A DNA stretch of 64,000 nucleotides from positions 1,152,001 through 1,216,000 of the forward strand of contig CAXXLV010000002.1 in NCBI GenBank assembly GCA_963664305.2, given 5' to 3'. Both the position numbers and the translations under genes were made by a program. Below the pieces are notes generated by a model. The model was not told where the DNA came from and searched no databases. It worked only from the letters and a program-made list of their open reading frames with translations. The stretch's first letter is position 1; each line of letters opens with the position of its first letter. The stretch comes from an uncultured Aliarcobacter sp. Its GTDB lineage: Bacteria > Campylobacterota > Campylobacteria > Campylobacterales > Arcobacteraceae. This document shows, piece after piece, positions 40,880 through 60,046 of this stretch.

Positions 40880-40904
40880 AAAGAGTAGTTTAAAACTACT
40901 CTTT
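40880..40904 (-). terminator. Hairpin overlapping end of the PepSY gene
   Basis: AAAGAGTAGTTT-A-AAACTACTCTTT. Confidence 0.5.
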
Positions 40905-42071: not shown

Positions 42072-42132
42072 TTTTTCTCCTTTTTAATTTGTGAAAATAT
42101 AACAAATTAATTTTAATGATTTTTTAACAAAT

Positions 42133-42147
42133 TGATAATAATTATTA
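42133..42147. promoter_or_regulatory. Fur-box-like site
   Basis: TGATAAT-A-ATTATTA. Confidence 0.6.
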
Positions 42148-43904: not shown

Positions 43905-43958
43905 TTTTTTTCCTTTTATTACTTTATAAATAAAACAAAAATTTCATCTATAAAATAA

Positions 43959-43984
43959 TAATTCAATCCCGAAGGATTGAATTA
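43959..43984 (-). terminator. Intercistronic hairpin after receptor gene
   Basis: 11 bp stem with C(UUCG)G loop on the minus-strand transcript. Confidence 0.65.
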
Positions 43985-43985
43985 A

Positions 43986-46160
43986 TTAAAATTTATATGC
44001 AAGAGTCAATAACCCACTTCTTGAAGCACCTGGAGTGTATCTTCTTCCAGAATTATTCATATTTGCAACATACTCTTCATCAGTTAAATTATAAACATTT
44101 AATTGATAAGTTATGTTTTTATTATATTTATATGAAGCCATAGCATCATAAACCACATACTCTTCAATTTTTGAAATAGGAGCTGTTGACGTTGTACTTG
44201 TTTTAACTTCTTGAGTTCCAACATATCTAGCACCTGCACCTACGTTAAATGCTGGTGTAAATTTATATGTTGTCCATAAAGTTGCTGTATGTTCAGGAGC
44301 AAATCTTAGACTTAATCCTTCACTTGTTGATGTTGAGTTAGTATATTCAGTATCCATTTTTGCAAGTCCTGCACTCATACTCCATTTATCAGTGATATCA
44401 CCAACAATTCCAAACTCTATACCTTTAACTTCTTTTTCTCCATTTTGAGAAGTACTTCCATCTGCTTCTGTCATAGTTTCATTTTCTACAACTGTTTTAT
44501 AAATAGCTGTTGTTAAAGAAATTCTATTATTTAATAAATCCCATTTTGTACCAATTTCATCTGTTATAGATTTTTGTGGTTCCATATCAGCATTATTTGC
44601 ACTTGTTGCACTTGAACTTAAAGTAAAGTTAGCACCACCTGGAGGTAATTGTGTAGTTGCTCTTGAGATGTAAACACTTCCATTATCAAGTGGTTTGTAA
44701 ACTAACCCTGCTTTATAACTATTTAAGTGACCATCATCTTCTAATGTTGAAGCAACTAATGTATTTGAAACTACATCATTTGTTGTTTCATATCTATCAA
44801 ATCTTCCACCACCTGTTAGGATAAATTTTTCTCCAATACTAATTGAATCAAATAAATATGCTCCAATTGTAGTTGTTTCTCCATCACTTTTTTGCCCAGA
44901 GAAAGTTAAGTCATTCCAAGAAATAGCTGTTGGATTGTATAAACTTGTTATCTGAGCAGTTTGAGAAGTATAATTTTTTGTTAATTGATTCTCTTTTGTT
45001 ATTTCTACACCAGTACTTAGATTATGAATTAACATACCAGTTTTAAATTCAGTTTTTATATTTGATTGATTTGTAAATAATTCATTTTCTTGCCATCTAG
45101 CATGTAATCTTCTATCAACAGTACTTGCAGCTGTATCATAATTAAATGGAGAAGTTAATAACATCTCTTGTCTTGTTTTTCCATATCTCATAGTATTTGA
45201 GAATGTTGAATTTGAAGCAAAATCTTGTTCAAATTTTACAGTAAATACATCACTTTTAGATTTTTCAAAATCATTAATACTTCCATAAAATGTTGAAGAA
45301 TCAACTTCTTGATTTAAACCATCTAAACCAACTGTTGGGATTCCACCATCTGGAACATCATCTTGTTCTGTGTGTTCATAATTGATAGTTGTTCTAGTTG
45401 CTGTTCCAATTCCAAATCCAACTGATGCTGCAATTCCAGTTCTATCTATTTCAACTTCATCTCTACCTGCAACATCACCTTTTTGTTTCATAACATTTAA
45501 TCTAACACCAGTAGTTTCATTTAATGCTTTATTTAAATCAGCTGTTAATCTAGCATTTTTTGCTGTACTATACCCAGCTGTTCCAGAAACTTCATCAACA
45601 TTTTTTGCAGTTTTTGTAACTTGATTTATATATCCAGAAGAAACACCTCTTCCATTATCAGCTCCAACAGCACCTTTTGTAACTTCAACAGCTTCTGTGT
45701 TATACATATCTTTTACTGCATTTGTTAAATCTCTTATACCATCTTTGAAAATACTTCCTTGAACATCAAAACCTCTCATATTAATATTATCTTTTGAGTT
45801 TGTGTTTCCATTTTCACCAAGATTTAAAGTAATACCAGGAGTATTTCTTAAAGCTTCTTGTAATGTAGTTGCTTGTTGTTCATCCATTACTTTTTTTGTA
45901 ATAACTTGTATTGTTTGAGGAGTATCAACTAATTCTTGTGTAACTTTAGATGAAGATGATTTATCAACTTTATATTTTTCTGTATAGTCATTTTTTTCAA
46001 CTTCAACAACATCGATTTTATCTAATACTGTTGTTGCTTCAGCATTTAGCATCATAGGAGTTGTTAATAATACTGTTGCTGTTACAACAGATGCACCTAG
46101 ATAATTTGTAGTTTTGTGTTTTTTACTTACGATATGATTTCTCAATTTATTTCCCTCCAA
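43986..46160 (-). CDS. TonB-dependent siderophore receptor (Fiu/PiuA-like)
   Basis: DTPQTIQVI, LRNTPGIT...GENG, MRGFD, NLTDEEY, terminal Phe. Confidence 0.9.
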   Translation of the reverse strand: MEGNKLRNHIVSKKHKTTNYLGASVVTATVLLTTPMMLNAEATTVLDKIDVVEVEKNDYTEKYKVDKSSSSKVTQELVDTPQTIQVITKKVMDEQQATTLQEALRNTPGITLNLGENGNTNSKDNINMRGFDVQGSIFKDGIRDLTNAVKDMYNTEAVEVTKGAVGADNGRGVSSGYINQVTKTAKNVDEVSGTAGYSTAKNARLTADLNKALNETTGVRLNVMKQKGDVAGRDEVEIDRTGIAASVGFGIGTATRTTINYEHTEQDDVPDGGIPTVGLDGLNQEVDSSTFYGSINDFEKSKSDVFTVKFEQDFASNSTFSNTMRYGKTRQEMLLTSPFNYDTAASTVDRRLHARWQENELFTNQSNIKTEFKTGMLIHNLSTGVEITKENQLTKNYTSQTAQITSLYNPTAISWNDLTFSGQKSDGETTTIGAYLFDSISIGEKFILTGGGRFDRYETTNDVVSNTLVASTLEDDGHLNSYKAGLVYKPLDNGSVYISRATTQLPPGGANFTLSSSATSANNADMEPQKSITDEIGTKWDLLNNRISLTTAIYKTVVENETMTEADGSTSQNGEKEVKGIEFGIVGDITDKWSMSAGLAKMDTEYTNSTSTSEGLSLRFAPEHTATLWTTYKFTPAFNVGAGARYVGTQEVKTSTTSTAPISKIEEYVVYDAMASYKYNKNITYQLNVYNLTDEEYVANMNNSGRRYTPGASRSGLLTLAYKF

Positions 46161-46251
46161 GAAAATTAAATATTTTTTATGTTTGATTTTAATTTTTGGC
46201 TGGCTACTTTTTAGGAGAACTTTAATAATTTTTGCTAGCTATATAATCTAA

Positions 46252-46386
46252 TTACTTTGTCAAAATTAATTTATTTGCTTTTGTGATTCTTAAGTGATAT
46301 GTTTGTCCATCATGAACAATAGTTATGGTATTTGTTTGATCAAAAATTTCTTTACTATCAATTTTTTTATCTTTTTTTTCTTCCAT
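46252..46386 (-). CDS. hemP: Hemin uptake regulator HemP/HmuP family protein (44 aa)
   Basis: Hand translation MEEKKDKKIDSKEIFDQTNTITIVHDGQTYHLRITKANKLILTK; C-terminal Y.LR.T...KLILTK is the HemP signature. Confidence 0.88.
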   Translation of the reverse strand: MEEKKDKKIDSKEIFDQTNTITIVHDGQTYHLRITKANKLILTK

Positions 46387-46468
46387 TTCCACTCTCATAA
46401 AATTTTTAACTAATTGTTAACAAAATATAAACGGGATATTAACGCAAGAAATCTTAAAAATAAATAAA

Positions 46469-46487
46469 ATTGATAATTAGTATCAAT
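46469..46487. promoter_or_regulatory. Fur-box-like site upstream of hemP
   Basis: ATTGATAATTAGTATCAAT. Confidence 0.7.
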
Positions 46488-46515
46488 ATAAGTTTATTAT
46501 AAAGAGAAATTCTCT

Positions 46516-46995
46516 TTATAATTTAGAGTTTTTTAGTTGTTCTAAAATTTTATTACTGTTTTTAAAACTAAAGTAGATAGTTAAAATTAATAGAATTATA
46601 ATAATAAAAAAGAATGTTAATGTTATTTTATCCCACTCATGTTCTTCATGTTCAGGTTTTGTTAATTTTTCTTTTATTTTTGGTTCAATTTTAAAATCAC
46701 TTTTTTTATTATCATAAATTCCTGATTTAACAACTTTTTCACTAGGACCTCCATCAAGAACAATTTGATATGGTTCATTAGGAATTGAAACAGTAATTTC
46801 ACTCTCTTTAGGTAATCTTTGTTTAAAAATAACTTCTCCCGTTTGCAATGACTCAAAACGAATCATTACGCCAGGAATAGTTTCTCCACCAATTAAAGTA
46901 ATTGTTTTATCATTATTTTCTATAACATTTAACATTAATTCATGCCCATAAATATATGATGTAAAAAAAATAAATATATATAAAATCTTTTTCAT
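46516..46995 (-). CDS. Exported protein with C-terminal membrane anchor
   Basis: Signal peptide MKKILY...YGH; HEEHE before TM helix. Confidence 0.7.
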   Translation of the reverse strand: MKKILYIFIFFTSYIYGHELMLNVIENNDKTITLIGGETIPGVMIRFESLQTGEVIFKQRLPKESEITVSIPNEPYQIVLDGGPSEKVVKSGIYDNKKSDFKIEPKIKEKLTKPEHEEHEWDKITLTFFFIIIILLILTIYFSFKNSNKILEQLKNSKL

Positions 46996-47009
46996 GTTTG
47001 TTAATCCTT

Positions 47010-48587
47010 TTAAATTTTTTTTGTCCAAAAAGCTTGAATTTCTTCTCTTTTTGTTGGAAGTTTATAGGCAACAAAAAATAATATTGCACCAAATAAAAAT
47101 AATCCAATATCAACATTTAAAATAGTAAACATCTCTTCATTTAAAAGTCTAATCGGAGAAAAACCACTATTAATAAAATGTATAATTGGACTTAACATAA
47201 ATAAAATTCCACCTAAAAAAAGAAACTCTTTTGCTGTTTGATAGGAATTTAATCTATAAAATGACCAAGTTAAAGTTCCCATCCACAATATTCCAAAAAG
47301 TTCTTTTTGTATTAAAACTCTATTTTCCATATCAAAAGGGAATAGCCATTGTAAAACAAATAACAATCCAGTTGCTGGAATTACTCCAATCATAACACAT
47401 AGTGAAATCTTTCCCATTACTTGATAGATTGGTATACCATCTGGAAATTTTCTAGCTTTTTTTTCAAGCCAAAGTAAAACACCAAAACCTATAGCAAAAG
47501 TTGAAATAATCATAATTAAAGCTATTAATAATCTTGTAAAAGTATCTACTCCAAATAAAAAATGTAAAAAAAACAAACTATCATAAAGTAAACCAGACCA
47601 ATGTTTATCCATAACTTTTTGTTGACTAATCAAGCTACCATCTATTCCACTTAAAGTTATATTTGGTTTATTTGAAATTCCATTTAAAAATGGCATATAA
47701 GGGTTGTAACCTTCTATTTTTGCAGTAGCACTTGAATCTCCCCAATTTGTCAACTCAATTTCATGAATATCAAGATTTGGATTAATTTGTTTTGCTTTTT
47801 TAATCAATTCATTCATGGTTATCATTTCAACATTATCATTTTTCTTTTTTATTTCTTCAGATAGAGGAAATAAAACTGGAAATGTTAGTTGAAAAACATT
47901 TGTTGCTTCACCTTTGGATGCAATATATGCCATTGGTGAAGAACCTGTAAATCCTATATTCATTAATGCACCGGTTAAAGTTATGATTATAAAAGGAGGA
48001 AATACAAAAGTAAAAATTTTTCTGTGAAATTTTGAAAATCTACTAACAACTGTTTTTGAACTATCTTTATATTTTATTTTAGTTATTAGTATAACTCCAC
48101 CTATTACTAAAAACATAACTCCAACTGCCATAAGACCAAATAAAATATATCCAAAATCTTTAAAAGGTCTTCCATAATGCATATGATTTAGAAATTCTGC
48201 TAGATTAGAAGCTTTATCTTCATTTTCAACTTCTAAATTTGTATTTGGATTAAAAACTCTAGTCTTAGTAAAATCTGCACTTATTCTTAATGCAGGATCC
48301 CCCATATAACCAGGAAGTATAATATGAACTCCATTTATTTTTGGATATTCAGGGTCTGCTAAAACGGGATCTATCATTGCCCCATAATCTATAGTTGTAA
48401 TATCAGCTAATTTAAAATGTCTTGATGGTTTTTCCCATACTTGAATATATGGAAGTAATATTGCAAATATTCCAAAAAAAACTGCAATATACATAATTAA
48501 AGAAAGAGAAATACCAGTTGCTACATGAACTCTTTGTAATCTTTGTTTAAATAATTTATTTGATTCATTTTCTAAATTTTTATTCAT
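47010..48587 (-). CDS. PepSY-associated TM helix protein (FpvG-like)
   Basis: VHVATG, FLNHMHYG, FHRK, LHFLFG; many TM helices. Confidence 0.82.
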   Translation of the reverse strand: MNKNLENESNKLFKQRLQRVHVATGISLSLIMYIAVFFGIFAILLPYIQVWEKPSRHFKLADITTIDYGAMIDPVLADPEYPKINGVHIILPGYMGDPALRISADFTKTRVFNPNTNLEVENEDKASNLAEFLNHMHYGRPFKDFGYILFGLMAVGVMFLVIGGVILITKIKYKDSSKTVVSRFSKFHRKIFTFVFPPFIIITLTGALMNIGFTGSSPMAYIASKGEATNVFQLTFPVLFPLSEEIKKKNDNVEMITMNELIKKAKQINPNLDIHEIELTNWGDSSATAKIEGYNPYMPFLNGISNKPNITLSGIDGSLISQQKVMDKHWSGLLYDSLFFLHFLFGVDTFTRLLIALIMIISTFAIGFGVLLWLEKKARKFPDGIPIYQVMGKISLCVMIGVIPATGLLFVLQWLFPFDMENRVLIQKELFGILWMGTLTWSFYRLNSYQTAKEFLFLGGILFMLSPIIHFINSGFSPIRLLNEEMFTILNVDIGLFLFGAILFFVAYKLPTKREEIQAFWTKKI

Positions 48588-48596
48588 TCATAAGCC

Positions 48597-48902
48597 TTAT
48601 ATATTGTATAAAATTATTATTAAAATTGAAAAAATTAAGGATGGGATTAAAACTTTTAATAATGCGTTTAATTTTGTAGAAGATAAACTAATCCATAAAG
48701 CTAAAATTGCCCAAACAAATGTATTTAAAAATAAAGGAATAATTATTGATTCTCCAACCTTTGCTGGAATTAAAAATATTAGTAAAGTCATTGAAAGATA
48801 AGCAACTAATAAACCACCAAATATCGCACAAATAGCTCTAAAAAGACCAATTTTTTTTCCGCTTGATTCAGGAATAGATAAATTTTTTATCAATTTTTTC
48901 AT
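48597..48902 (-). CDS. Small three-TM protein of iron-uptake operons (DUF3649-like)
   Basis: RAICAIFGG motif; sits between receptor and PepSY gene. Confidence 0.65.
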   Translation of the reverse strand: MKKLIKNLSIPESSGKKIGLFRAICAIFGGLLVAYLSMTLLIFLIPAKVGESIIIPLFLNTFVWAILALWISLSSTKLNALLKVLIPSLIFSILIIILYNI

Positions 48903-48916
48903 TTTTCTCCTAAAAT

Positions 48917-48941
48917 AAAAAAGAGGTTTTTAACCTCTTTT
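48917..48941 (-). terminator. Hairpin after receptor gene
   Basis: AAAAGAGGTT-TTT-AACCTCTTTT. Confidence 0.6.
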
Positions 48942-51060
48942 AAAATGTATATTTCATACCAAGTGTTGCATTTCTTGGATCACCATAAACCATAGAATTA
49001 ACTCCTAAACCTGAGTAATACTCTTCATCAAATATGTTATTAATATTTAATTGTAAATCTAAGTTTTTATTTACTTTGTATCCAGCCATTAAATCTGCTG
49101 TAATAAATCCATCTTGTGTAATATCTCCGTATGAAGAAGTTTTGTAATATTTACTTTTATAATTTAATCCTGCACCAAATCTATAATCATTTACTTTATA
49201 TTTTGCAAAAATATTAGCAGTTGTACGAGAAGAAGATGTGTTAAAATCACTTCCATCACTATTTTTAGCTTCAAAATTAGCAAGTCCAAAGTCCAAACTT
49301 AATTTTTCTGTAATATTTCCTGAAACTCCAACTTCAAAACCTTTACTTACAACTCCATCTTTTGCTTCATAAATACTTTCTAGATTACCATTTACCATAC
49401 CTGAATCTTCTGCAACTCCTTCTTGTTCTATTCTAAATAGAGTTAAAGATGTATTTAAATCACCATCAAGATATTCACCTTTGATTCCAACTTCATAATT
49501 ATTTCCAGTAATTGGATCTAAATAACTTCCACTAGAATCTTTCTTGTCTTGAGGTTTGAAAATACTCGTATAACTTGTATAAATTGAGTGATTTTTGTCT
49601 AAATCATAAACTAATCCAATATATGGAGTTAGTTCATTATCAAAATCTCTATTTCCTGTTCCAAACTCATTTTCATATTTCCAAGATGAAACTCTAATTC
49701 CTGAAATTAATTTTAAATCTTCTTTTAAAGAAAATTTACCAGCCAAATAAGTTCCACTTTGAGTTGTTTCCTCTAAAGCTAAAGAATTAGTTGATGAATA
49801 AACAGGCTCACTAATTGAGATGTTATTAAAATTGATTGTTGTCCATCCAATATTACTTGAATAAGTAGCTTTATCTTTTTTTGATTTTGTATACATTGTT
49901 CCAACAATAATCTCATGATCAAGTTTGGCTAATTCAAAAGGAATTGAAGCATATAAATCTAAGCTATCTTCTTTTATTTCATTAGCAAATCCATATCCAT
50001 ATAATCCAAAATCACCTGAACCAACTACTTGATTACCTGTTGTTTTATCAACTGTCCCACCAAAGTAAGCTAAGTTTCCATCAGATTTAATTTCTCGATG
50101 AACTAAAGATGCATTTAATGAAATATCATCATATACATATTGTTTAAAATCTGCATAATTTGAAGTTGTTTGAATATTCCAAGCTGTCCAATCATCTGAA
50201 ATTGTTTTTGAATTATCAAAAGTTGCTTTTGTTCCGTCACTATAAAAAGCAGGCATTCCACCCCATCTAATACCACTTCTATCTATATCTTCAATACTAC
50301 TTCCTAAAGATAAAAAAGTTGTATCAGTTAAATCCATATCAACTACACCATACAAAATATTTGTTGTTTTGTCATAATTATCCATATAAGACTCTTTGTC
50401 TTGATGTTTAGCTACAACTCTGGCTCTAATATTTCCTTTTTCATTTAATCCAGTTTGAATATCTACAATTTGACTATAATTATTCCATGAACCTGCACTT
50501 AAGTCTATTGTTCCTGTTAACTCTTTAGAATTTGCATGTTTTCTAACAAAATTCATACCAAGTGCAGGATTTCCAGCACCTGTCATTAAGCCATTTGCAC
50601 CTTTTACTATTTCAACCCTATCATAAATTGATAAATCAGGATCATCAGCATTATCACTAATTGAATATGTTGGTACTCCATCATATAAATAATAATCTAT
50701 ATCAAATCCTCTTGCTGTTGGATATACTCTTTCATCCCATTGATTTAGAGTAACTCCTGGAGTTTTTGCTAAAAGTTCTTGATAAGATGTAATATTTTGA
50801 TCATCTAATTTTTGTCTGGTAAATACTAAAACTGATTGTGGTGTTTCTTTTAAAGACATTTCAAGTTTTGTTGCTGTGTTCATACTTCTTGTTGTATAAG
50901 AATCTATTCCTTCTGTTGTACTTTCACTTACATAATATGTAGCATCTTCTGCAACTTTTATCTCTTCTAAAACAGTTTTTTCTTCTGCAAAAACTGATGT
51001 TCCTAAAATCATTGTTGCAAATAATGATAAGTGAATTAATTTTCTTTTTTTATGTTCCAT
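48940..51060 (-). CDS. TonB-dependent siderophore receptor (FhuE/FpvA-like)
   Basis: KETPQSV, ARGFDI, YDRVEIVKGANGLMTGAGNP, NNIFDEEYY, YGDPRN, terminal Phe. Confidence 0.9.
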   Translation of the reverse strand: MEHKKRKLIHLSLFATMILGTSVFAEEKTVLEEIKVAEDATYYVSESTTEGIDSYTTRSMNTATKLEMSLKETPQSVLVFTRQKLDDQNITSYQELLAKTPGVTLNQWDERVYPTARGFDIDYYLYDGVPTYSISDNADDPDLSIYDRVEIVKGANGLMTGAGNPALGMNFVRKHANSKELTGTIDLSAGSWNNYSQIVDIQTGLNEKGNIRARVVAKHQDKESYMDNYDKTTNILYGVVDMDLTDTTFLSLGSSIEDIDRSGIRWGGMPAFYSDGTKATFDNSKTISDDWTAWNIQTTSNYADFKQYVYDDISLNASLVHREIKSDGNLAYFGGTVDKTTGNQVVGSGDFGLYGYGFANEIKEDSLDLYASIPFELAKLDHEIIVGTMYTKSKKDKATYSSNIGWTTINFNNISISEPVYSSTNSLALEETTQSGTYLAGKFSLKEDLKLISGIRVSSWKYENEFGTGNRDFDNELTPYIGLVYDLDKNHSIYTSYTSIFKPQDKKDSSGSYLDPITGNNYEVGIKGEYLDGDLNTSLTLFRIEQEGVAEDSGMVNGNLESIYEAKDGVVSKGFEVGVSGNITEKLSLDFGLANFEAKNSDGSDFNTSSSRTTANIFAKYKVNDYRFGAGLNYKSKYYKTSSYGDITQDGFITADLMAGYKVNKNLDLQLNINNIFDEEYYSGLGVNSMVYGDPRNATLGMKYTF

Positions 51061-51085
51061 TTTCTTCCTCTTTTTATTTCAATTA

Positions 51086-51100
51086 TGATAATTAATCTCA
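51086..51100. promoter_or_regulatory. Fur-box-like site
   Basis: TGATAAT-T-AATCTCA just upstream of the receptor start. Confidence 0.6.
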
Positions 51101-51318: not shown

Positions 51319-52005
51319 TTAGAAAATTGTAGTAATTTTATATCCAACTTTTGAAAAATTTTCCAAAGTATTTTCAGGAAGTTTAGTTCTTAATTTTCTT
51401 GCTACAGAACGAATTGCATCTTCACTCATAAAAGATTCATTCCAAACAATAGCTTGTATTGTTTCATAAGATACTAAATTGTTACTATTTTCACAAAGTA
51501 AAGTCAAAAAGTCAGATTCTTTATTTGTTAATTTTACAAATTCATCATTTACATATAAAGATTTAGTCAATAGATTAAAATAAGAATCTTTTGAAAAATA
51601 TTTTAGATTTTTATTGCTATTTTTAATTTTTTTAACACATTGATTCAATATTGGAAAAATTACTTCATGCCTAATTGGTTTTACTAAATACTTTTCAAGT
51701 CTTAATTCAACAGCCTCTAATAAATAATCAGTTTTTGTATAAGCACTTAAGACAATAATTTTTGTATCTAAATCTTTTTCTCTTATTTTTTTTATCATTT
51801 CTAAACCATTTATCTTAGGGAGATTAATATCAGTTATTACAATATGAGGTTTTTTATATTCAATTATTTCAAAAGCTTCAGTTACATCTTTTGCTTCATA
51901 TACCTCATCAAATAATCTTTTTAAATAAGATATTGCATTAATTCTTATATTTTCTTCATCTTCAACAAATAAAATTTTTATATCTTTAAATTCATTTATA
52001 CTCAT
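51319..52005 (-). CDS. OmpR-family response regulator
   Basis: LFVEDE, TDINLP, YLVKP, LTNKE, IRSVARKLRTKL, VGY. Confidence 0.92.
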   Translation of the reverse strand: MSINEFKDIKILFVEDEENIRINAISYLKRLFDEVYEAKDVTEAFEIIEYKKPHIVITDINLPKINGLEMIKKIREKDLDTKIIVLSAYTKTDYLLEAVELRLEKYLVKPIRHEVIFPILNQCVKKIKNSNKNLKYFSKDSYFNLLTKSLYVNDEFVKLTNKESDFLTLLCENSNNLVSYETIQAIVWNESFMSEDAIRSVARKLRTKLPENTLENFSKVGYKITTIF

Positions 52006-52081
52006 GTTTGAATTTTATCATATTCAAACTAAATTATAATAATTACTATCAATATTAATATAAAAACTGTATAATATAAAA

Positions 52082-53776
52082 ATGAAACATTTTTTACTAT
52101 TTATTTTATTTTTATCAAACTTATATAGTTTTGATTTTATTAAAGATTATATTTCTGAAGACAATATACATTTTACTCCTGCTTCATATGATGAATATAA
52201 AACAAAAAAAATCAAAGAGTTTACATTTAAATTTAAAATTGATTTAGAAAATTTAAAAGAAAAACACAGTTATTTAGCAATTGTTTCAAATACAAATGCT
52301 CTGATTTATACTAATTTTAAATATGAAACACTCAACAATACAATATTAATAAAATTAGATGAAATTAAAAATAATGAGTTAATTCTTCAATACAAATATG
52401 AAAAAGAAAAAAGACCTGAGTTTCGATGGAATATTATTTCAGATTTTGAATATAAATACTTACTAAAATTTGAAGGTATTTTATATGGAGTGTCATATGG
52501 AATAATTTTTTGTGCATTTTTATACTACATTATCATCTATTTTTCAACAAGAATGAAATATTTTTTATATTATTCTTTAATGCAATTTTTTGTTTTATTA
52601 TCACTTATTGGTTTTGTATATTTTAGTTATCAAGCTTATCCTTCTTCAACCCCACAAATGATTGTTGATATTTGTGAAACTCTGAGTTTTATGTTTACTT
52701 TATTATTCTGTCAATCTATTTTACAAACTAAAGAAAGATTAGTAATAATTCATAAGTTTTTAAACTTTTTTATATTTTTAAATGTATTAGATATTATTGC
52801 TATTTTTATCTATAAATATTCCATTTTATATGAATATTTACCTTTTCATATAGGCTTTCTAGTTCCTTTTTTTACTGGAATGATAACCATATATAAAGGA
52901 GATAAAAATGCAATAATATATACTTTTGGATGGTTAATAGTAACTATTTTTGTTTATATTGCTGAACATCGAATAGTTCCTATTAGTAATATTTATATCA
53001 TTCATTTAGGTGCTCCTTTAGAATCTTTAATTTTTAGTTTTGCTTTAGGATTAATGTTAAGAAATCTTACAAAAGAAAAAAATGAAAAAGAAAAACTTTT
53101 AATTCATCAAAGTAAACTAGCTTCAATGGGAGAAATGATAAACAATATTGCACATCAATGGAGACAACCTCTAACCCATCTTGGTTTTATTAATATGAAT
53201 TTACAACTTGCATTTGAAGATAAACCAATAAACAAAAAGTACTTAAATGAAAAAATAGAAGAATCCTATATACAACTTGATTTTATGTCAAAAACAATTG
53301 ACAATTTTATGGACTTTTATAAATTAAATAAAAAAACTGAACTCTTTTATATAAGTAATGCAGTAAAAAAAGCTTTAGATATTATGGAACCTATTTTTGA
53401 GAATCATAAAATCAAATTTGATTTTACAGTAATAAAAGATAAACAAATAAATTCTTTTGAAAATGAGTATTCTCAAGTAATTTTAAATCTTTTAACAAAT
53501 GCAAAAGATGCCATTATTTCAAAAAAAATTGAAAATCCAAAAATAAAAATTATTATTGATGTGGAAAACAATAGTTCTATCACTAAAATCTCAGATAATG
53601 CAAAAGGTATTGATAAAAAAAATATTGAAAAAATATTTGAACCATATTTTACAACTAAACAAGCAGGAAGTGGTATAGGACTTTATATGTCAAAAATGAT
53701 TGTTGAGACACATTTTAAAGGTAAAATTAATGTCTCAAACTTAAAAGAAGGAGCTTTATTTTCAATAGTAATATAA
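52082..53776 (+). CDS. 7TM-DISM sensor histidine kinase
   Basis: Multi-TM region; IAHQWRQPL, NLLTNAKDA, FEPYFTTK, GSGIGLY. Confidence 0.92.
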   Translation: MKHFLLFILFLSNLYSFDFIKDYISEDNIHFTPASYDEYKTKKIKEFTFKFKIDLENLKEKHSYLAIVSNTNALIYTNFKYETLNNTILIKLDEIKNNELILQYKYEKEKRPEFRWNIISDFEYKYLLKFEGILYGVSYGIIFCAFLYYIIIYFSTRMKYFLYYSLMQFFVLLSLIGFVYFSYQAYPSSTPQMIVDICETLSFMFTLLFCQSILQTKERLVIIHKFLNFFIFLNVLDIIAIFIYKYSILYEYLPFHIGFLVPFFTGMITIYKGDKNAIIYTFGWLIVTIFVYIAEHRIVPISNIYIIHLGAPLESLIFSFALGLMLRNLTKEKNEKEKLLIHQSKLASMGEMINNIAHQWRQPLTHLGFINMNLQLAFEDKPINKKYLNEKIEESYIQLDFMSKTIDNFMDFYKLNKKTELFYISNAVKKALDIMEPIFENHKIKFDFTVIKDKQINSFENEYSQVILNLLTNAKDAIISKKIENPKIKIIIDVENNSSITKISDNAKGIDKKNIEKIFEPYFTTKQAGSGIGLYMSKMIVETHFKGKINVSNLKEGALFSIVI

Positions 53777-54178: not shown

Positions 54179-54236
54179 GAAAATCCTTTTTATTTTTTTT
54201 GATTATATTTATCAAAGACTTAAAAAACATTTAAAA

Positions 54237-54251
54237 TGATAATTACAATCA
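54237..54251. promoter_or_regulatory. Fur-box-like site
   Basis: TGATAAT-T-ACAATCA. Confidence 0.5.
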
Positions 54252-54305
54252 ATATTCTTTTAAGAATTTTAATGATAAAGTTCTATTTAATAAAAGGAGT
54301 TTAAT

Positions 54306-54455
54306 ATGAAAAACTTAATTGATATAGATAATGAGTATATTTCTAATTCATCTTTATATAAAACAAATGTAAAAATTCACAAAAACTTATGGAAATTTTA
54401 TGGTTTAGCACTTAGCTTTAGTATAATATTTATTTTAATTAAAGGTATAAATTAA
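54306..54455 (+). CDS. Small 49 aa protein with C-terminal TM helix
   Basis: AAAGGAG RBS; MKNLIDID...LWKFYGLALSFSIIFILIKGIN; stop overlaps next ATG (TAATG). Confidence 0.6.
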   Translation: MKNLIDIDNEYISNSSLYKTNVKIHKNLWKFYGLALSFSIIFILIKGIN

Positions 54456-54904
54456 TGGAACCAAATCAAGATGTAGCATTTAATATATTTTTAAAAAATT
54501 TCAAAAAACAAGTTTCAAAAATTGGATTAAAAAATTCAATTCAAAAAGATTATATTTTAAAAGTTTTATATTTTTCAAAAAAACATCTAACAGCTGAAGA
54601 TATTTCAAATGAAATTAAAACTATTTATAATGTATCAATAGGTATTGCAACAGTATATAGAGCTATGAAATTTTTTCATGATATGAAACTTGTAAATCAA
54701 CTTGATATTGGAGATGGTATTTTAAGATATGAACTTAATTTATCTGACCATCATGACCATTTAATTTGTACTTCTTGTGGAACTATTATTGAATTTAATG
54801 ATGACTTAATTGAATTAAATCAAATTAAAATTGCTAGTAAAAATAATTTCATTTTAAAAGAACATGTAATGACAATATATGGACTTTGTGAAAACTGCCA
54901 ATAA
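54455..54904 (+). CDS. Fur family transcriptional regulator
   Basis: HLTAEDI, IGIATVYR, HHDHLICTSCG.IIEF, YGLCENC. Confidence 0.92.
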   Translation: MEPNQDVAFNIFLKNFKKQVSKIGLKNSIQKDYILKVLYFSKKHLTAEDISNEIKTIYNVSIGIATVYRAMKFFHDMKLVNQLDIGDGILRYELNLSDHHDHLICTSCGTIIEFNDDLIELNQIKIASKNNFILKEHVMTIYGLCENCQ

Positions 54905-54909
54905 TCCCT

Positions 54910-54924
54910 TGATAATAATTATTA
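54910..54924. promoter_or_regulatory. Fur-box-like site upstream of the fez-like operon
   Basis: TGATAAT-A-ATTATTA. Confidence 0.65.
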
Positions 54925-54984
54925 GTTTATAATAAGTTTAATTTAATAATTAAAAAGAAAAAATACATCTTAGAAAGGATTATT

Positions 54985-55299
54985 TTGATAGATACAGATG
55001 ATATAATAAAAATAGCTAGTTATTTTTCTATTATTGCTCACACTCCTGGAAGATTAAGAGTTAGAGTTAATCCCAAAATAACGCAAAATGCTGGAAATAT
55101 TACCCTAAGTGATATTGAAGATTTACCAAAAAAAATTGATGGAATAATTAATATAAAAATAAATAAAATTATTGCATCAGTTACAATTATTTATGACCCA
55201 AAAATTTTTAAACCAAAACTTTGGGAAGATTTGATTAAAAATGAGAATTTGGAAGAGTTATCAGTACTAATAAATGAACTTGCTAAGGAGGTAATTTAA
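54985..55299 (+). CDS. HMA2-like domain protein (FezC-like N-terminal domain)
   Basis: HTPGRLRVR, GI..IKINK...SVTIIYDP; no CxxC. Confidence 0.75.
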   Translation: MIDTDDIIKIASYFSIIAHTPGRLRVRVNPKITQNAGNITLSDIEDLPKKIDGIINIKINKIIASVTIIYDPKIFKPKLWEDLIKNENLEELSVLINELAKEVI

Positions 55300-55982
55300 T
55301 GGTAGAAAATTTTGATGAACAATTACTAATCAATGCAAGAGTTGATATAAATAGTGATATTCCTATACAAACTCAAATTCTAAGAATTGCAGTTTATGAT
55401 GAGTTCAAAGCTTATGAAACATATACAAAAATCATCGAAAAATTTGGATTTGTTCAACCTTTTGTAAACATCAAAGAGGCTGAAGCTATTCACTACTCTG
55501 CTCTAATTCAACTCATGCAAAAATATAACATTGAAGTTCCAATCAATAATTGGTCTTCAAAAATTGAAATTCCAAATACATTAATTGAGTGTTGTGAAAT
55601 GGGTGTAGCAGGTGAAATTGAAAACATTTCCATGTATAACAATTTATTAAGTTATGCTACTGATGCAGATGTTAAAGATGTACTTTTTAGATTGCAAGCA
55701 GCTTCATACAACAATCATTTACCTACATTTAGGAATTGTGTATTAAACCATTATAGTAATGGAAATACACCAACTATATCTCAAGACAATATCATGGAAA
55801 AAATTGGAGAATATCAAGTTATCTTAGATGATATAATGTCTGGAAATATTGATGAAAATTCAATATCTAATATCTTTTCAAAATTAAATCTGTCTATGGT
55901 TAGTGGTGCTGTTTTAGGAGGTGCAATTATTGCTCTTTTAAACAACTATATTTCAAAAAAAGAGATTAAAGAAGAGGAGTAA
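55299..55982 (+). CDS. Ferritin-like protein (DUF2202-like) with C-terminal GxxxG membrane helix
   Basis: DEFKAYETY, EAEAIH, GEIENISMY, ASYNNHL; tail SGAVLGGAIIALL. Confidence 0.75.
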   Translation: MVENFDEQLLINARVDINSDIPIQTQILRIAVYDEFKAYETYTKIIEKFGFVQPFVNIKEAEAIHYSALIQLMQKYNIEVPINNWSSKIEIPNTLIECCEMGVAGEIENISMYNNLLSYATDADVKDVLFRLQAASYNNHLPTFRNCVLNHYSNGNTPTISQDNIMEKIGEYQVILDDIMSGNIDENSISNIFSKLNLSMVSGAVLGGAIIALLNNYISKKEIKEEE

Positions 55983-55985
55983 AAG

Positions 55986-56255
55986 ATGGCTTTACCATTT
56001 ATTTTAGGGTTAGCAGTAGGTGCTGGTGCTATGTTCGCTTTTAGTAATAAAGATAAATTAAAAGATAAATCTTCAAAATTATTTGAAAAAACAAAAGATG
56101 GTGTTGAAGAAATAAAAGATAAATTTTGCGCAACAAAAGAGTGCATTGAAGAAAAAATAGAAAAAAAAACTACCAAAAAAGTTGATAAAGTTCAAGAAGA
56201 AAAACCAAAAACAAGAAAATATCAAAAAAAAGTAAAAACTGAGGAAGAAGCGTGA
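55986..56255 (+). CDS. Small GxxxG membrane protein with charged tail
   Basis: MALPFILGLAVGAGAM then K/E-rich region; GAGGAG RBS. Confidence 0.75.
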   Translation: MALPFILGLAVGAGAMFAFSNKDKLKDKSSKLFEKTKDGVEEIKDKFCATKECIEEKIEKKTTKKVDKVQEEKPKTRKYQKKVKTEEEA

Positions 56256-56623
56256 AAGAGATAAAAGATCTAACAATTGATACAGGAACTCCTAGAAATG
56301 TTCTTGGACATGTAATTAGTGGTGCAGTTGCAAGTGCTGTAATTAGTGGTGCAATTAATTATAAAAAAACTCAAGCTAGACAAATTACAAAAAAAGAAGC
56401 TATTAAAGATACTATCAAAAGAACTTCACAAGGAGCAATTGCTACAGGAAGTGCAATTGCAACTGCAAATTATTTAGGTCAAAAAGGTGGTTTATTAAAA
56501 GCTTTAACTGCTGCATCAATTGGAATGATGGGAATATATGCAATTGAAGTAATAGAAGAAAAACTTGACCAAAAATATTTAACAAACCAAAATATTCCTA
56601 TTGAGGGGGAAGATTATGAATAA
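56252..56623 (+). CDS. Small Gly/Ala-zipper membrane protein
   Basis: SGAVASAVISG, GAIATGSAIA, ASIGMMG; GTGA overlap with upstream gene. Confidence 0.7.
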   Translation: MKEIKDLTIDTGTPRNVLGHVISGAVASAVISGAINYKKTQARQITKKEAIKDTIKRTSQGAIATGSAIATANYLGQKGGLLKALTAASIGMMGIYAIEVIEEKLDQKYLTNQNIPIEGEDYE

Positions 56624-56966
56624 TCAAACAAATCAATATGATTTAAATATTGAAAGTACAAGAAATCAAAATCTTCAAACAGGTGCAAATATTAATCAGA
56701 ATCCATACATTAATCAAAATGTAAATTCTTTACAAACTCCTGTTCAAAACCAAGTAACTTCTCAAAATGGTTTTTTAAATAATGATTTTGTAAAAGGTGC
56801 ACTTTTAGGAGCTGCTGTTACTTATCTTCTTACAAATAAAAATGCACAAGATACTATTTTCAAAGCTTTTGGAAAAGGAAGTGAACTTTTTAGTGCTGGA
56901 ATTGAAGAGTTAAAAGAGAGATACGAAGATATGAAAGCTCAAATGCAAGCGCAACAAGAACAATAA
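56616..56966 (+). CDS. GxxxG membrane protein with N/Q-rich N-terminus (FezA-like)
   Basis: FVKGALLGAAVTYLL, EELKERYEDMKA; immediately upstream of the ATPase. Confidence 0.72.
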   Translation: MNNQTNQYDLNIESTRNQNLQTGANINQNPYINQNVNSLQTPVQNQVTSQNGFLNNDFVKGALLGAAVTYLLTNKNAQDTIFKAFGKGSELFSAGIEELKERYEDMKAQMQAQQEQ

Positions 56967-56969
56967 AAA

Positions 56970-59078
56970 ATGAAAAATAAATTTGTAAAAGTACATCAAA
57001 CTGCTTTTAGAGTTAGATACAAACTTTTTTTATTAAAAGAAAAATTTATTGATGAAGAAATATTAAAAAATTACTTCAGAAAAATAAAAGAGATAGAAGA
57101 TGTAAGAATTAATAAAAAAGCTTGCAGTATTATATTTCAATTAAAAAGTGATATAACAGAAAAAATTGAAAAGATTTTAAATAATCTTTCAATTGAAGAG
57201 TTACTTAAATCTTGTGAAGAAGAAGTAGCTGCTGTTTGTGTTTCGTGTTCAAGCAGTGAAGAACCCTCTTTAAAAGGTATTGTAAGAGCTAGTTCAGCTT
57301 TAATTGCTGAAAGATTTATCACAAATAATGCTTTAAAAGCAACTTTAACAACAACTGCATCTATTCCATTATTGGTTGAAGGTTCAAAGGAGTTATTCAA
57401 AGAAGGATTAACTTCTAAAGTTTTAGAAAGTGCTGCTGTTGCTATTTCAATTTATAGAAAAGATTATTTAGCTGCAAACTCAACAAATGCTATGCTTGAA
57501 CTTGGTGAATATATAGAAGAGACAACTGTTCATAAAAGTGATGATTTATTAAAAGAACTTTCTAAACCAAATGTTGAAGAAGCTTGGGTAGAAAAAAATA
57601 TTGATGGAAAAATTACTGAAATATTAGTAAAAAGCTCAAATATTCAAATTGGAGATATTGTAGTTGTAGGAATTGGAAATACTATTCCTGTTGATGGACA
57701 TATTGTTGAGGGAACAGGAACTATAAATCAAGTTTCTATGACAGGAGAAGCACAACCTGTTATAAAATATAGAGGTGATAGGGTAATTTCTGGAACTATC
57801 GTTGAAGAAGGTAGATTTAGAATTTGGGCTGAACATGTAGGAGCTGACACGGCAACACAAAGAATCAAACACTATATTGAAAATTCATTAAACGAGAAAT
57901 CATCTGTTCAACTAAAAGCAAATAAATTAGCAAATAAATTGGTTCCTGTTACACTTGGGCTTGCTACAGCTTCATATATTTTTACAAAAGATATTGAAAG
58001 AGTTGCTTCAATTTTACAAGCTGATTACTCATGTGCATTAAAACTTGCAACTCCTGTTGCCTTTAAATCAACTATTTCAAAAGCTGGTCATAATGGAATT
58101 ATGATTAAAGGTGCAAAATCAATTGAAGCCTTAAATAGTGCAGATACTTTTGTATTTGATAAGACAGGAACATTAACAGCAGGGGAACTTGAAGTTATAA
58201 GTGTTGAATCTTATGATGAGAAATGGACAGAAGAAGAGTTATTAAATCTTACAGCTTCTACAGAAGAACACTATTTTCATCCAGTAGCTGAAGCTGTTGT
58301 AAAAGCTGCAAAACAAAGAGGTTTTGTGCATATGCACCATGAAGAAGTAGAATTTATCGTTGCACATGGTGTAAAAACTGAAGTAAATGGTAAATCTGTA
58401 ATCATTGGAAGTCGTCATTTTTTAGAAGATGATGAAAAGATTGACTTCGGTGAACATAAAGAAAAAATTGAAAATTCTTTAAAAAATGGAAAAACTCTTC
58501 TTTATGTTGGTTATGATGGAAAACTTTTAGGAACAATTGGTTTAAGTGATGAATTAAGATCAAATGCAAAAGAATCAATAACTAAACTAAAAAAACTAGG
58601 TGTAAAAAATATCATAATGCTTACTGGTGATACAAAAGAAAAAGCATTAAAAATTGCCAATGAATTAGGTATTGATGAAGTAAGAGCAGAACTTTTACCG
58701 CAAGATAAAGCAAATATTGTAAAAGAATTGATGGATGAGGGCAAAAAAGTTGCCTTTGTTGGTGATGGTATAAATGATGCGCCTGCTTTAATATCTGCAC
58801 ATGTTGGAATTTCTATGAGTAGAGGTGCTGATATTGCAAAAGCAACAGCAGATATATCTTTACTTAAAGATGATATTGCAGCTGTTGTTGAAGTAAAAGA
58901 GTATGCAAATAAAACTATGAATTTAATAAACAATAACTTTAATGCAACTGTTGGAATAAATTCTTGTATATTAGCTGGTGCAACATTTGGAGTATTTTCA
59001 CCAATTGTAACAGCAGTTTTACATAATGGTACAACTATTGGATTATTGTTCAATTCAATAAAAGGTGTAAAAATCTAA
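56970..59078 (+). CDS. Heavy-metal P1B-type ATPase, P1B-6/FezB-like
   Basis: TGE, DYSCALKLATP, DKTGT, HP, GDGINDAPAL, LHNGTT; R-rich N-terminus FRVRY. Confidence 0.9.
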   Translation: MKNKFVKVHQTAFRVRYKLFLLKEKFIDEEILKNYFRKIKEIEDVRINKKACSIIFQLKSDITEKIEKILNNLSIEELLKSCEEEVAAVCVSCSSSEEPSLKGIVRASSALIAERFITNNALKATLTTTASIPLLVEGSKELFKEGLTSKVLESAAVAISIYRKDYLAANSTNAMLELGEYIEETTVHKSDDLLKELSKPNVEEAWVEKNIDGKITEILVKSSNIQIGDIVVVGIGNTIPVDGHIVEGTGTINQVSMTGEAQPVIKYRGDRVISGTIVEEGRFRIWAEHVGADTATQRIKHYIENSLNEKSSVQLKANKLANKLVPVTLGLATASYIFTKDIERVASILQADYSCALKLATPVAFKSTISKAGHNGIMIKGAKSIEALNSADTFVFDKTGTLTAGELEVISVESYDEKWTEEELLNLTASTEEHYFHPVAEAVVKAAKQRGFVHMHHEEVEFIVAHGVKTEVNGKSVIIGSRHFLEDDEKIDFGEHKEKIENSLKNGKTLLYVGYDGKLLGTIGLSDELRSNAKESITKLKKLGVKNIIMLTGDTKEKALKIANELGIDEVRAELLPQDKANIVKELMDEGKKVAFVGDGINDAPALISAHVGISMSRGADIAKATADISLLKDDIAAVVEVKEYANKTMNLINNNFNATVGINSCILAGATFGVFSPIVTAVLHNGTTIGLLFNSIKGVKI

Positions 59079-59083
59079 CTTTA

Positions 59084-59143
59084 TGATAATAGTTATCAGT
59101 TTTATTTAAGTTTATACAGATAGAATTATGATAATTATTATCA
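59084..59143. promoter_or_regulatory. Two Fur-box-like sites
   Basis: TGATAAT-A-GTTATCA (59084-59098) and perfect TGATAAT-T-ATTATCA (59129-59143). Confidence 0.75.
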
Positions 59144-59154
59144 AAAGGATTTTT

Positions 59155-59271
59155 ATGCCAATATTATTGATTGCAACAGCTTTCACAGCAATTTTAACTG
59201 TTAAAACTGTAAATAAAACTGTAAAAACAATGGAAAAAAGAAGAAAAAGGAAAATAAATGATGAAATTTGA
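59155..59271 (+). CDS. Small 38 aa protein, hydrophobic N-terminus and basic tail
   Basis: AAAGGA RBS; MPILLIATAFTAILTVKTVNKTVKTMEKRRKRKINDEI. Confidence 0.55.
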   Translation: MPILLIATAFTAILTVKTVNKTVKTMEKRRKRKINDEI

Positions 59272-59491
59272 TTTAGAATTACAAAGAGAAGCTGCAAAAA
59301 TTGGTATGACAGCAACACTTGGTGCAACTGTTGTGACGTCAATGTTTATGAAAAATTCTATCGCAAAAAAAACTCATGTTGTTGCAGGTGTTGCATTTTG
59401 TGGATTTGCTTTATGGCACCATATGCTTTATCAACCTAAAAAATCTAAACAAGAAAAATTAATAAAAAAAGTAAAAACAGAAATTGAATAA
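59258..59491 (+). CDS. Small two-TM protein with His residues flanking the second helix
   Basis: AKIGMTATLG, THVVAGVAFCGFALWHH. Confidence 0.7.
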   Translation: MMKFDLELQREAAKIGMTATLGATVVTSMFMKNSIAKKTHVVAGVAFCGFALWHHMLYQPKKSKQEKLIKKVKTEIE

Positions 59492-59524
59492 CTAATTTAT
59501 TTTTGATTAAGATTCTTTATATTA

Positions 59525-59539
59525 TGATAACGATTATCA
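59525..59539. promoter_or_regulatory. Fur-box-like site
   Basis: TGATAAC-G-ATTATCA. Confidence 0.7.
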
Positions 59540-59557: not shown

Positions 59558-60046
59558 ATGTCTAATAATCATCTTCTTCAAAAAAATCTAAATGAACTAA
59601 TTGTAACAAATATTTTTTCATCACTTGTTAGTGGAGAAAAATGGAAAATGTTAATTACTATGTTTGAACTAAAAATACTAGATATAAATGCTAAAGATTC
59701 TAGAGGTAGAAATGCTTTGTATTGGGCAATTTTAAAAAATAAAACAGATATTATAAAAAAACTACTTGAACTTGGAATTTGTACAAAAGTATCTCCAAAT
59801 TTTTCAGCAATAAATTTTGCAGTTTATTTAGACAATATCAAAGTAATCAGATGTTTAAAAAATTGTGGAATAGATATAAATGAAATTGATGATATTAACT
59901 CTACTCCTTTAATTTATGCAATTTTATATAACAAATACAATAGTATCAAATATCTTATAGAAAATGGTGCAAATGTTGAACATGAAGATTTTTTAGGAAA
60001 TAGTGCAAAAAGTTTAGCAAAAAATTTAAAAATAGAAATCTTTTAA
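59558..60046 (+). CDS. Ankyrin repeat protein
   Basis: DINAKDSRGRNALYWA, STPLIYA, LIENGANV. Confidence 0.88.
   Translation: MSNNHLLQKNLNELIVTNIFSSLVSGEKWKMLITMFELKILDINAKDSRGRNALYWAILKNKTDIIKKLLELGICTKVSPNFSAINFAVYLDNIKVIRCLKNCGIDINEIDDINSTPLIYAILYNKYNSIKYLIENGANVEHEDFLGNSAKSLAKNLKIEIF

Follow-up and report, generated by a model that had tools for sequence, protein, structure and literature searches.

Can a bacterium of the genus Aliarcobacter build ferrosomes, the membrane-bound organelles that store iron with phosphate? The question is raised by a gene cluster in a 64,000-nucleotide stretch from an uncultured Aliarcobacter sp. (GenBank assembly GCA_963664305.2, contig CAXXLV010000002.1, positions 1,152,001 to 1,216,000 of the forward strand). 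We call this whole stretch the window; the source genome is 2.78 Mb. A first-pass annotation of the window, made from the sequence alone, had read the genes as a ferrosome (fez) operon. We find that the cluster is an intact and conserved operon that encodes a P1B-6 ATPase and the accessory families that define fez clusters, with Fur-type boxes in front. Judged by sequence, the cluster is almost certainly of the fez type. We think that it probably builds membrane compartments that store iron and phosphate, under the control of Fur.

Ferrosomes have been shown experimentally in four species only, according to the literature cited here. In the available text of the preprint by Grant and Komeili (bioRxiv 10.1101/2020.01.10.902569), the ATPase FezB is defined by the motifs D[Y/F]SCA and HNxxT and by an N-terminal R-rich motif. 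Fez clusters are defined by GxxxG, R-rich, DUF4405, FeoA and DUF2202-with-GxxxG proteins, and genes for Fur, Feo and receptors are frequent neighbors. That text also states that the clusters are necessary for ferrosomes in three species and that the Shewanella putrefaciens cluster is sufficient in E. coli. Apart from DUF4405, for which the matches are sub-threshold, each of these sequence features that could be checked was found in the window, from the P1B-6 motifs to the neighbors (a fur gene is adjacent, and within 14 kb there are two operons for TonB receptors and two genes for PepSY_TM proteins), so the fez reading of the first-pass annotation holds up.

A fez-type cluster and its P1B-6 pump

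We call the open reading frames (ORFs) upstream of the pump gene o1 to o5, and the two downstream of it o6b and o7 (Table 1). The coupled core, from o1 to the ATPase, lies on the + strand at 54985-59078 (from the ORF list of the 64-kb window). The junctions within it are overlaps of 1–23 nt or gaps of 3 nt by ORF coordinates, so the earlier description of six tightly coupled genes was correct, and a Fur-type box does stand in front of them. A gap of 76 nt separates the pump gene from the next small ORF. The interval first proposed for the operon, 54985-59491, also takes in the 38-amino-acid ORF o6b and the gene o7, which had been left out of the description. All eight or nine ORFs of the cluster are open. 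A scan for sigma-70 promoters found 40 sites versus 39.7 expected from shuffled sequences, which is no excess, and the single terminator-like site is on the opposite strand, inside the pump gene.

The pump matches Pfam E1-E2_ATPase and Hydrolase, and it scores 496 bits against TIGR01525. The CPC of P1B-1 and P1B-2 exporters is replaced by SCA in transmembrane helix 4 (TM4), within a DYSCA motif at position 352 (ADYSCALK, residues 351–358), and the last helix carries HNGTT at 685. Both motifs had been read correctly in the first-pass annotation. The pump's R-rich motif at the N-terminus is RVR (residues 14–16, within FRVRYK), and R14 and R16 are invariant in the N-termini of 21 of 21 Campylobacterota pumps. 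The catalytic motifs TGE, DKTGT, HP, TGD and GDGIND are intact. The P1B-1, P1B-2 and P1B-4 exporters (CopA, ZntA, PfeT) have the P-type core domains in common with this pump, but their signatures are CPC/SPC and MxxSS/DxG instead of DYSCA and HNGTT. A sequence search of the PDB with the pump returned no P1B-6 structure; the best matches were CopA, a Cd pump and ZntA (E = 4e-77 to 2e-58). A FezB pump is expected to have six membrane helices and not eight; here, about 100 residues between the N-terminal domain and the A domain leave room for two helices, and the hydropathy peaks are weak.

To place the pump, we searched 1.84 billion representative sequences (clustered at 50% identity) and took the 150 best. 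The nearest of these 150 are overwhelmingly DYSCA/HNxxT proteins. A tree of 237 P1B sequences was then built from 125 of 149 representatives (P0121-P0269; those of 620–800 amino acids with DKTGT were retained) and from 112 ATPase ORFs of at least 550 amino acids from the loci compared below, with one duplicate merged (MAFFT, 673 columns kept, FastTree with LG+gamma, rooted on the CPC/MxxSS group). The only FezB homolog named in the literature among its tips is the Sulfurospirillum multivorans pump; the four experimentally studied FezB proteins are not among them. The window's pump is nested in a clade of 135 tips that is exclusively of the D[YF] type (support 0.988). The smallest clade to include every one of the 111 canonical D[YF]SCA+HNxxT proteins counts 127 tips, none of them CPC-type, with support of just 0.664. 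Proteins with CPC and HNxxT are added to the D[YF] group one node further out (154 tips, support 1.0); the CPC, CPH and CPD types are outside the D[YF] clade. This topology agrees with the description in the available text of the preprint (bioRxiv 10.1101/2020.01.10.902569). The first-pass annotation had named a position outside the FezB/P1B-6 clade as evidence against itself; the pump instead groups inside the D[YF]SCA/HNxxT clade. The genome holds three P1B pumps, and the other two are CPC types that are placed in other clades.

In the pump, the HMA_2-like domain is separated from the first membrane helix by a Cys-rich acidic linker (window 57213-57260, ATPase residues 82–97), with C82, C90 and C92 in CEEEVAAVCVSC. 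Arcobacter-type pumps keep the linker; in Sulfurospirillum-type pumps it varies, and Campylobacter-type pumps do not have it. It may provide an additional metal site.

Proteins that carry the name Arcobacter ellisii at NCBI share 94% identity with the pump, and those of Aliarcobacter butzleri share 87%. Counting orthologous pumps at E ≤ 1e-100 within the family and E ≤ 1e-130 within the phylum (these counts are samples, not censuses), we found them in 64 of 120 other Arcobacteraceae genomes, representing 15 of 22 genera and including 8 of 11 genomes of the same genus, and in 168 of 400 other Campylobacterota genomes. By family, with our numbering, the pump was found in 17 of the 23 genomes searched for f1, 24 of 118 for f2, 116 of 158 for f3, 7 of 19 for f11, 2 of 3 for f6, 1 of 2 for f9 and the single genome of f14, and in none for f4, f5, f7, f8, f10, f12 and f13.

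For gene order, we compared 20 Campylobacterota loci from five families (labeled with L numbers), and we built profile hidden Markov models (HMMs) from them. The order of genes is the same in all 20. Always beside the pump gene, o1 to o5 are present in 20 of 20 loci, o7 in 17 and o6b in 9, and the motifs of the small proteins are conserved over the five families. Exact protein look-ups gave names to five loci: S. multivorans (L084), Campylobacter gracilis (L087), C. lanienae (L088), a Helicobacter sp. (L091) and A. butzleri (L096).

The S. multivorans locus links the window to a known fez cluster. Its pump is letter-identical to AHJ13987.1, and the protein cluster of o7 contains AHJ13985.1, which is SMUL_2746; the numbering is consecutive, so the L084 pump is SMUL_2748. 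(SMUL_ is the prefix for S. multivorans, according to the accessible part of PMC7755780.) SMUL_2748 is listed among FezB homologs with conserved clusters in the legend of Extended Data Fig. 5a of the preprint (Grant and Komeili, bioRxiv 10.1101/2020.01.10.902569), whose main text, as far as it is available, does not mention Epsilon-, Campylobacter or Arcobacter. The two pumps are 62% identical and have the same DYSCA/HNGTT motifs; both clusters have the order o1, o2, small proteins, pump, o7; and both have a Fur-type box 75 nt before o1. From this evidence, the window's cluster is the ortholog of a Sulfurospirillum cluster that has already been catalogued as fez, and therefore it is not a new system. 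One difference is that S. multivorans has another ATPase (774 amino acids, SCPC/HIxHT, FezH-like) upstream of o1, where the window has fur.

Full-text searches, whose coverage of subscription papers is thin, found no description of ferrosomes in Campylobacterota, no pairing of ferrosomes with Arcobacter or Sulfurospirillum, and no experimental test of the Sulfurospirillum cluster. In the accessible part of PMC12574912, the mentions of ferrosomes and of Campylobacter or Helicobacter are unrelated. So the first-pass statement that no experimental account was known for Campylobacterota stands, but it overstated the novelty, since the SMUL_2748 cluster had been catalogued. Its remark about routine annotation was right: orthologs in this cluster are named "heavy metal translocating P-type ATPase", "hypothetical protein", "DUF2202/ferritin-like", "YtxH domain-containing" and "P-type Zn(2+) transporter".

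A second P1B ATPase (703–774 amino acids) is encoded directly upstream of o1 in 6 of the 20 loci (L084, L086, L094, L095, L099, L102). Its helix 4 carries SCPC and its last helix HI[AG]HT, and an RxR motif is also present, which fits FezH as described in the available text of the preprint (bioRxiv 10.1101/2020.01.10.902569). In the pump tree, these SCPC/HIxHT pumps branch outside the CPC+HNxxT node. There is no such ATPase among the three P1B pumps of the window's genome.

Outside the phylum, a scan of contigs with generic P-type motifs gave at least 80 loci. Among the matches listed, D[YF]-type pumps account for 13 (L004-L014, L044, L059), and no model fez species is represented. In a betaproteobacterial metagenome-assembled genome (L004), a FezB-type pump has homologs of o1 (E = 5.8e-13), o2 (1.9e-25), o4 (1.1e-5) and o5 (2.4e-18) beside it, their order unchanged, and FeoA and FeoB are encoded downstream. 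In Rhodobacter capsulatus (L008), the pump is flanked by a homolog of o5 (8.3e-19) and an o1-like protein (2.9e-4). One FezA-like ORF with GxxxG precedes the pump gene in loci from Lachnospiraceae, Flavonifractor, Dorea and Collinsella. BLASTP with o3 and o7 found nothing in the loci outside the phylum, which does not imply absence for proteins this short.

Table 1. The cluster and other features of the window (positions are within the window; aa, amino acids)
Feature	Position	Strand	Basis
Fur-type box TGATAATAATTATTA, 1 mismatch to TGATAATNATTATCA, 75 nt upstream of o1	54910..54924	+	pattern scan
o1, HMA_2-type soluble protein, 104 aa, R-rich motif in HTPGRLRVRV	54985..55299	+	HMA_2, 28.7 bits
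o2, DUF2202 ferritin-like protein with C-terminal membrane helix and GxxxG, 227 aa	55299..55982	+	Pfam, AF2, Foldseek
o3, 89 aa, hydrophobic N-terminal helix, GLAVG	55986..56255	+	HMM family, motif
o4, Gly/Ala-rich membrane protein, 123 aa, remotely MamC-like	56252..56623	+	NCBIfam MamC, E = 2.8e-5
o5, 121 aa (116 aa if it starts at the ATG at 56616), GALLG	56601..56966	+	HMM family, motif
FezB-type P1B-6 ATPase, 702 aa	56970..59078	+	motifs, Pfam, TIGR01525, tree
Fur boxes between the pump gene and the 38-aa ORF	59084-59098 (1 mismatch), 59129-59143 (perfect, 7-1-7)	+	pattern scan
o6b, probable membrane protein, 38 aa, MPILL...RRKRK	59155..59271	+	HMM conservation; putative ORF
o7, two-helix membrane protein, 77 aa, DUF4405-like	59258..59491	+	HMM family, invariant His
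Fur-type box, 1 mismatch, 19 nt upstream of the ankyrin gene	59525..59539	+	pattern scan
Ankyrin-repeat gene, 162 aa, membership in the cluster uncertain	59558..60046	+	Pfam; own Fur-type box
Fur-family regulator, 149 aa	54455..54904	+	Pfam FUR, E = 2e-32
Two Fur-box-like sites (each with 2 mismatches) before a 49-aa ORF and fur	54200-54214, 54237-54251	+	pattern scan
TonB-dependent receptor genes	43986-46160, 48940-51060	-	iron-uptake island
PepSY_TM genes	40896-42071, 47010-48587	-	iron-uptake island

Accessory proteins

As the first-pass annotation had proposed, o1 is an HMA-like protein with an R-rich motif (GRLRVRV). Although its score against Pfam's HMA_2 is slightly below the 30-bit cut-off, every one of the 22 sequences in its family matches HMA_2 with E ≤ 0.01 (2.5e-12 at best), and G22, R23 and R25 are invariant in the family. 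When we aligned the o1 family to the first 100 residues of the pumps with hhalign, the match covered 78 columns with a probability of 98.1% and E = 1.1e-13, and both carry an H-x-x-G/x-R-x-R motif. Because of the profile-profile match and the common motif, we consider that o1 is a free-standing paralog, in effect a copy, of the pump's N-terminal domain, similar to FezD or to the N-terminal half of FezC. It contains no Cys and one His and is therefore not a CxxC-type chaperone. The AlphaFold2 (AF2) model of o1 is an alpha/beta sandwich (pLDDT 81.9).

o2 is the ferritin-like protein with a membrane tail that had been described in the first pass. It scores 27.6 bits against DUF2202 (the Pfam cut-off is 22 bits). 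In the AF2 model, residues 1–150 form a four-helix bundle with pLDDT above 95, which is followed by a low-confidence linker and then by a terminal helix (203–226). Foldseek's best match to o2 is MJ0754 (3q4n_B, E = 8.2e-6), and ferritins, bacterioferritins and Dps-like proteins come next. G203 and G207 in the tail are at least 90% conserved, so o2 has the DUF2202-with-GxxxG combination of fez clusters. In five Campylobacter-type orthologs of o2 (L085, L086, L089, L094, L095), helix 2 is without ExxH and helix 4 has RLWATSNNEY instead of RLQAASYNNH. In these proteins the putative di-metal site seems to be lost, with the GxxxG tail retained.

The first-pass annotation counted three small membrane proteins with GxxxG, which is right for o3 and o5 but not strictly for o4. 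A GxxxG motif is present in 20 of 20 members of the o3 family and in 21 of 21 members of the o5 family. In this genome o4 has Gxxx[S/A] instead; within its family, 16 of 21 members have GxxxG and all 21 have Gxxx[GAS]. o3 is of FezA-like design, with a hydrophobic N-terminal helix (LPF..G...G) and then a Lys/Glu-rich tail. o5 has an N/Q-rich head, the GxxxG helix and a conserved amphipathic tail; its orthologs are the ones named "YtxH domain-containing" in databases.

The only match of o4 in the model library was to NCBIfam's MamC (NF038051), with 24.3 bits. Since the cut-off for MamC is 100 bits, o4 is not a MamC. Nevertheless, 14 of 22 sequences (o4 and 13 of its 21 relatives) match the MamC model at E ≤ 0.1, with a best E of 4.6e-8, and the matches of the family span about 70 of 97 positions of the model. 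In a six-frame search of the whole genome, o4 was the only match to the MamC model, and none of 14 control genomes had a match. So the resemblance appears to be remote yet specific. It may reflect common descent or just the composition of Gly/Ala-rich helices. If the link is true, it would point to a common ancestry of the membrane proteins of ferrosomes and magnetosomes.

Downstream of the pump, o6b begins 12 nt past the perfect Fur box, has a Shine-Dalgarno-like AAAGGA 6 nt upstream and overlaps the start of o7. It would encode a hydrophobic helix and then the RRKRK tail. An exact look-up of the L096 copy of o6b found no such protein in the protein collection. In the o7 family, H40 and H54 are invariant, and DUF4405 is matched by 17 of 18 members with E ≤ 10 (0.0018 at best), every score being under the gathering cut-off of 26.7 bits. 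By these matches, o7 appears to be DUF4405-like, in the manner of the membrane half of FezC or of FezF.

As described, the six-gene fez clusters of S. putrefaciens and Rhodopseudomonas palustris (FezB to FezG) also have a P1B-6 pump, at least two GxxxG proteins, an R-rich protein that is soluble and chaperone-like, and a protein with two helices. They differ in that the HMA and two-helix portions of FezC are encoded here by two genes (o1 and o7), and the window adds the DUF2202 ferritin-like gene, the MamC-like gene and the 38-amino-acid ORF. The clusters of Desulfovibrio magneticus (fezABC) and Clostridioides difficile (FezA and FezB) likewise have the pump and a small GxxxG protein with a hydrophobic N-terminus, but they are minimal, with two or three genes instead of eight or nine.

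Fur-type boxes and the role of the cluster

The window has 11 matches (with up to 2 mismatches) to TGATAATNATTATCA, which we take to be the Fur-box consensus; 2.57 were expected, and none of 100 shuffles reached 11. Six of the 11 are within 54200-59539, that is, in and around the cluster. In the box before o1, the first half-site is Fur-like and the second (ATTATTA) deviates from the consensus. A box with at most 2 mismatches recurs 72 to 79 nt before o1 in L084, L095, L097 and L099. In most of the 20 loci, inspection by eye shows a TTGATAAT block at a similar distance before o1, with TTAAGYT about 14 nt later, and this block is retained even where another gene ends immediately upstream. The position of the Fur box upstream of o1 is conserved across genera. 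Perfect boxes are also found before the 38-amino-acid ORF in L096, L097 and L103, and a box with 1 mismatch in L098. In C. difficile, FezA and FezB are Fur-repressed, according to the accessible part of PMC12574912.

By analogy with the studied clusters of D. magneticus, S. putrefaciens, R. palustris and C. difficile, and given the predicted topologies, we propose the following. Once Fur repression is lifted, o3, o4, o5 and the tail of o2 would gather and shape a patch or vesicle of the cytoplasmic membrane. The ATPase would then move cytoplasmic Fe(II) into the lumen, by way of an Asp/Cys site in TM4 and a His/Asn/Thr site in TM6. There the iron would precipitate with phosphate and form a reserve against iron starvation. 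o1 probably works on or with the N-terminal domain of the pump, as a regulator or a delivery partner; because it has no Cys, it would not act by the mechanism of a classical CxxC chaperone. We expect o2 to be on the cytoplasmic side, where it would handle iron at the surface of the membrane, and o7, with its two His, would be the counterpart of the membrane part of FezC.

We also considered that the pump might be an efflux pump of the cytoplasmic membrane for Fe(II) or other divalent metals, of the PfeT or CtpC type, with the small proteins as helpers and no organelle. The solved P1B structures that match the pump are all of exporters, and its orthologs include proteins annotated as Zn(2+) transporters. 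Also, the nearest outgroup in our tree is the CPC+HNxxT group, and related R-rich ATPases include CtpC of M. tuberculosis, according to the available text of the preprint (bioRxiv 10.1101/2020.01.10.902569). However, a classical Fur-type box would imply expression at low iron, which is the reverse of what an iron detoxifier needs. Furthermore, the motifs and the accessory genes are those of clusters that the same partial text describes as necessary and sufficient for ferrosomes, and the neighbors are iron-uptake genes and not resistance genes. So we consider efflux unlikely.

Could the compartment store manganese, cobalt or zinc instead of iron? We did not find a direct measurement of metal specificity for P1B-6 pumps in the literature, the off-consensus half-site before o1 leaves some doubt about that box, and PMC13463818 asks whether ferrosome-like structures exist for other metals. 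But the box at 59129 is a perfect 7-1-7 Fur-type box, a Fur paralog is adjacent, and nearby TonB-receptor and PepSY_TM operons have the same kind of box. Also, the cluster includes a ferritin-like protein, and FeoA and FeoB adjoin the related cluster in L004. A store for another metal is thus very unlikely in our view. That the operon has fallen silent or is decaying in this strain, as its patchy presence in the genus and family might hint, is highly improbable, given the open ORFs, the intact catalytic motifs, the full-length identity of 85–94% to the pumps of named Arcobacter species and the motifs of the small proteins that are conserved over five families.

Several points count against our proposal that the cluster builds iron-storing compartments. 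Homology to the experimentally characterized FezB and other Fez proteins is indirect, by way of motifs, the clade and the catalogued Sulfurospirillum cluster. The cluster is dispensable: we did not find the pump in 3 of the 11 genomes of the same genus or in 56 of the 120 genomes of the family. The membrane helices of the pump are weakly hydrophobic, and its putative 6-helix topology is read from hydropathy alone. Structure searches did not confirm an HMA-like fold for o1: Foldseek gave no match at E ≤ 0.001 (its weak top rows include the HMA domains 3cjk_B, at 1.4e-2, 6a71 and 2lqb), and the best of 48,161 chains in VIA-align was an arginine-repressor domain (Z = 5.2), versus Z = 3.9 for ATP7B. 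The genome also carries two ordinary ferritin-family genes. Repression by apo-Fur is known in this phylum, which bears on the direction of Fur control. Finally, Arcobacter is aerotolerant. According to the available text of the preprint, S. putrefaciens and R. palustris formed no ferrosomes during aerobic growth (bioRxiv 10.1101/2020.01.10.902569). So the conditions under which the cluster is used may be narrow.

This type of cluster is already known and is common among relatives, so what we offer for the window is, in the main, its correct re-annotation and not a discovery. Our additions are modest: the paralogy of o1 and the pump's N-terminal domain, the weak but specific likeness of o4 to MamC, the 38-amino-acid ORF, the conserved position of the Fur box, and the breadth of the cluster across Campylobacter and Helicobacter. 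Still, the eight- to nine-gene cluster is common in Campylobacterota, and its carriers include A. butzleri, several Campylobacter species and a Helicobacter, in whose genomes the fez genes are annotated as a zinc-type pump and hypothetical proteins. In C. difficile, ferrosomes aid gut colonization, and whether other pathogens or commensals possess them is asked in the same paper (PMC12574912, in its accessible part). The Campylobacterota are a culturable and tractable group in which ferrosome formation can be tested micro-aerobically, and the parts that minimal clusters lack (o1 as a free HMA_2 domain, the anchored ferritin-like o2 and the MamC-like o4) are open to dissection.

More tentatively, the Campylobacterota clusters might encode a distinct and richer ferrosome toolkit: a FezC whose HMA_2 domain and two-His hairpin are separate proteins, a tail-anchored ferritin-like protein on the surface of the organelle, a small protein that is truly related to MamC, dual control by Fur, and organelles that form outside strict anaerobiosis. 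We hold this to be possible but doubtful. If true, micro-aerobic, aerotolerant and host-associated epsilonproteobacteria would build iron-phosphate organelles without strict anaerobiosis, and these would include A. butzleri, C. gracilis, C. lanienae and enterohepatic Helicobacter.

Genes around the cluster

The fur gene just upstream of o1 is one of four Fur-family genes in the genome and is below every NCBIfam equivalog cut-off. A Fur-family ORF adjoins the cluster in 6 of the 20 related loci (L085, L096, L097, L098, L101, L103). The best-scoring Fur gene of the genome adjoins feoB on another contig (70096-72881). A 49-amino-acid ORF (54306-54455) with a hydrophobic C-terminal stretch ends at the start of fur, and L096 and L097 have ORFs of 42 and 43 amino acids in the same place (matched by position only).

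Farther upstream is an iron-uptake island on the minus strand (window 40896-51100). Three of the 11 Fur-type matches, at 42133, 46471 and 51086, are upstream of one PepSY_TM gene and two TonB-receptor genes of this island. Flanking the island are two pairs (36846-39016 and 51319-53776), each made up of a 7TMR-DISM-type sensor kinase and an OmpR-type response regulator, and there is a weaker Fur-like site at 52037, between one of these pairs.

On the other side of the cluster is the ankyrin-repeat gene. Among the 20 loci, only L096 has an ortholog of it (79%) after the cluster. Its own Fur-type box predicts control by Fur, and an iron-regulated ankyrin protein would be unusual in a bacterium.

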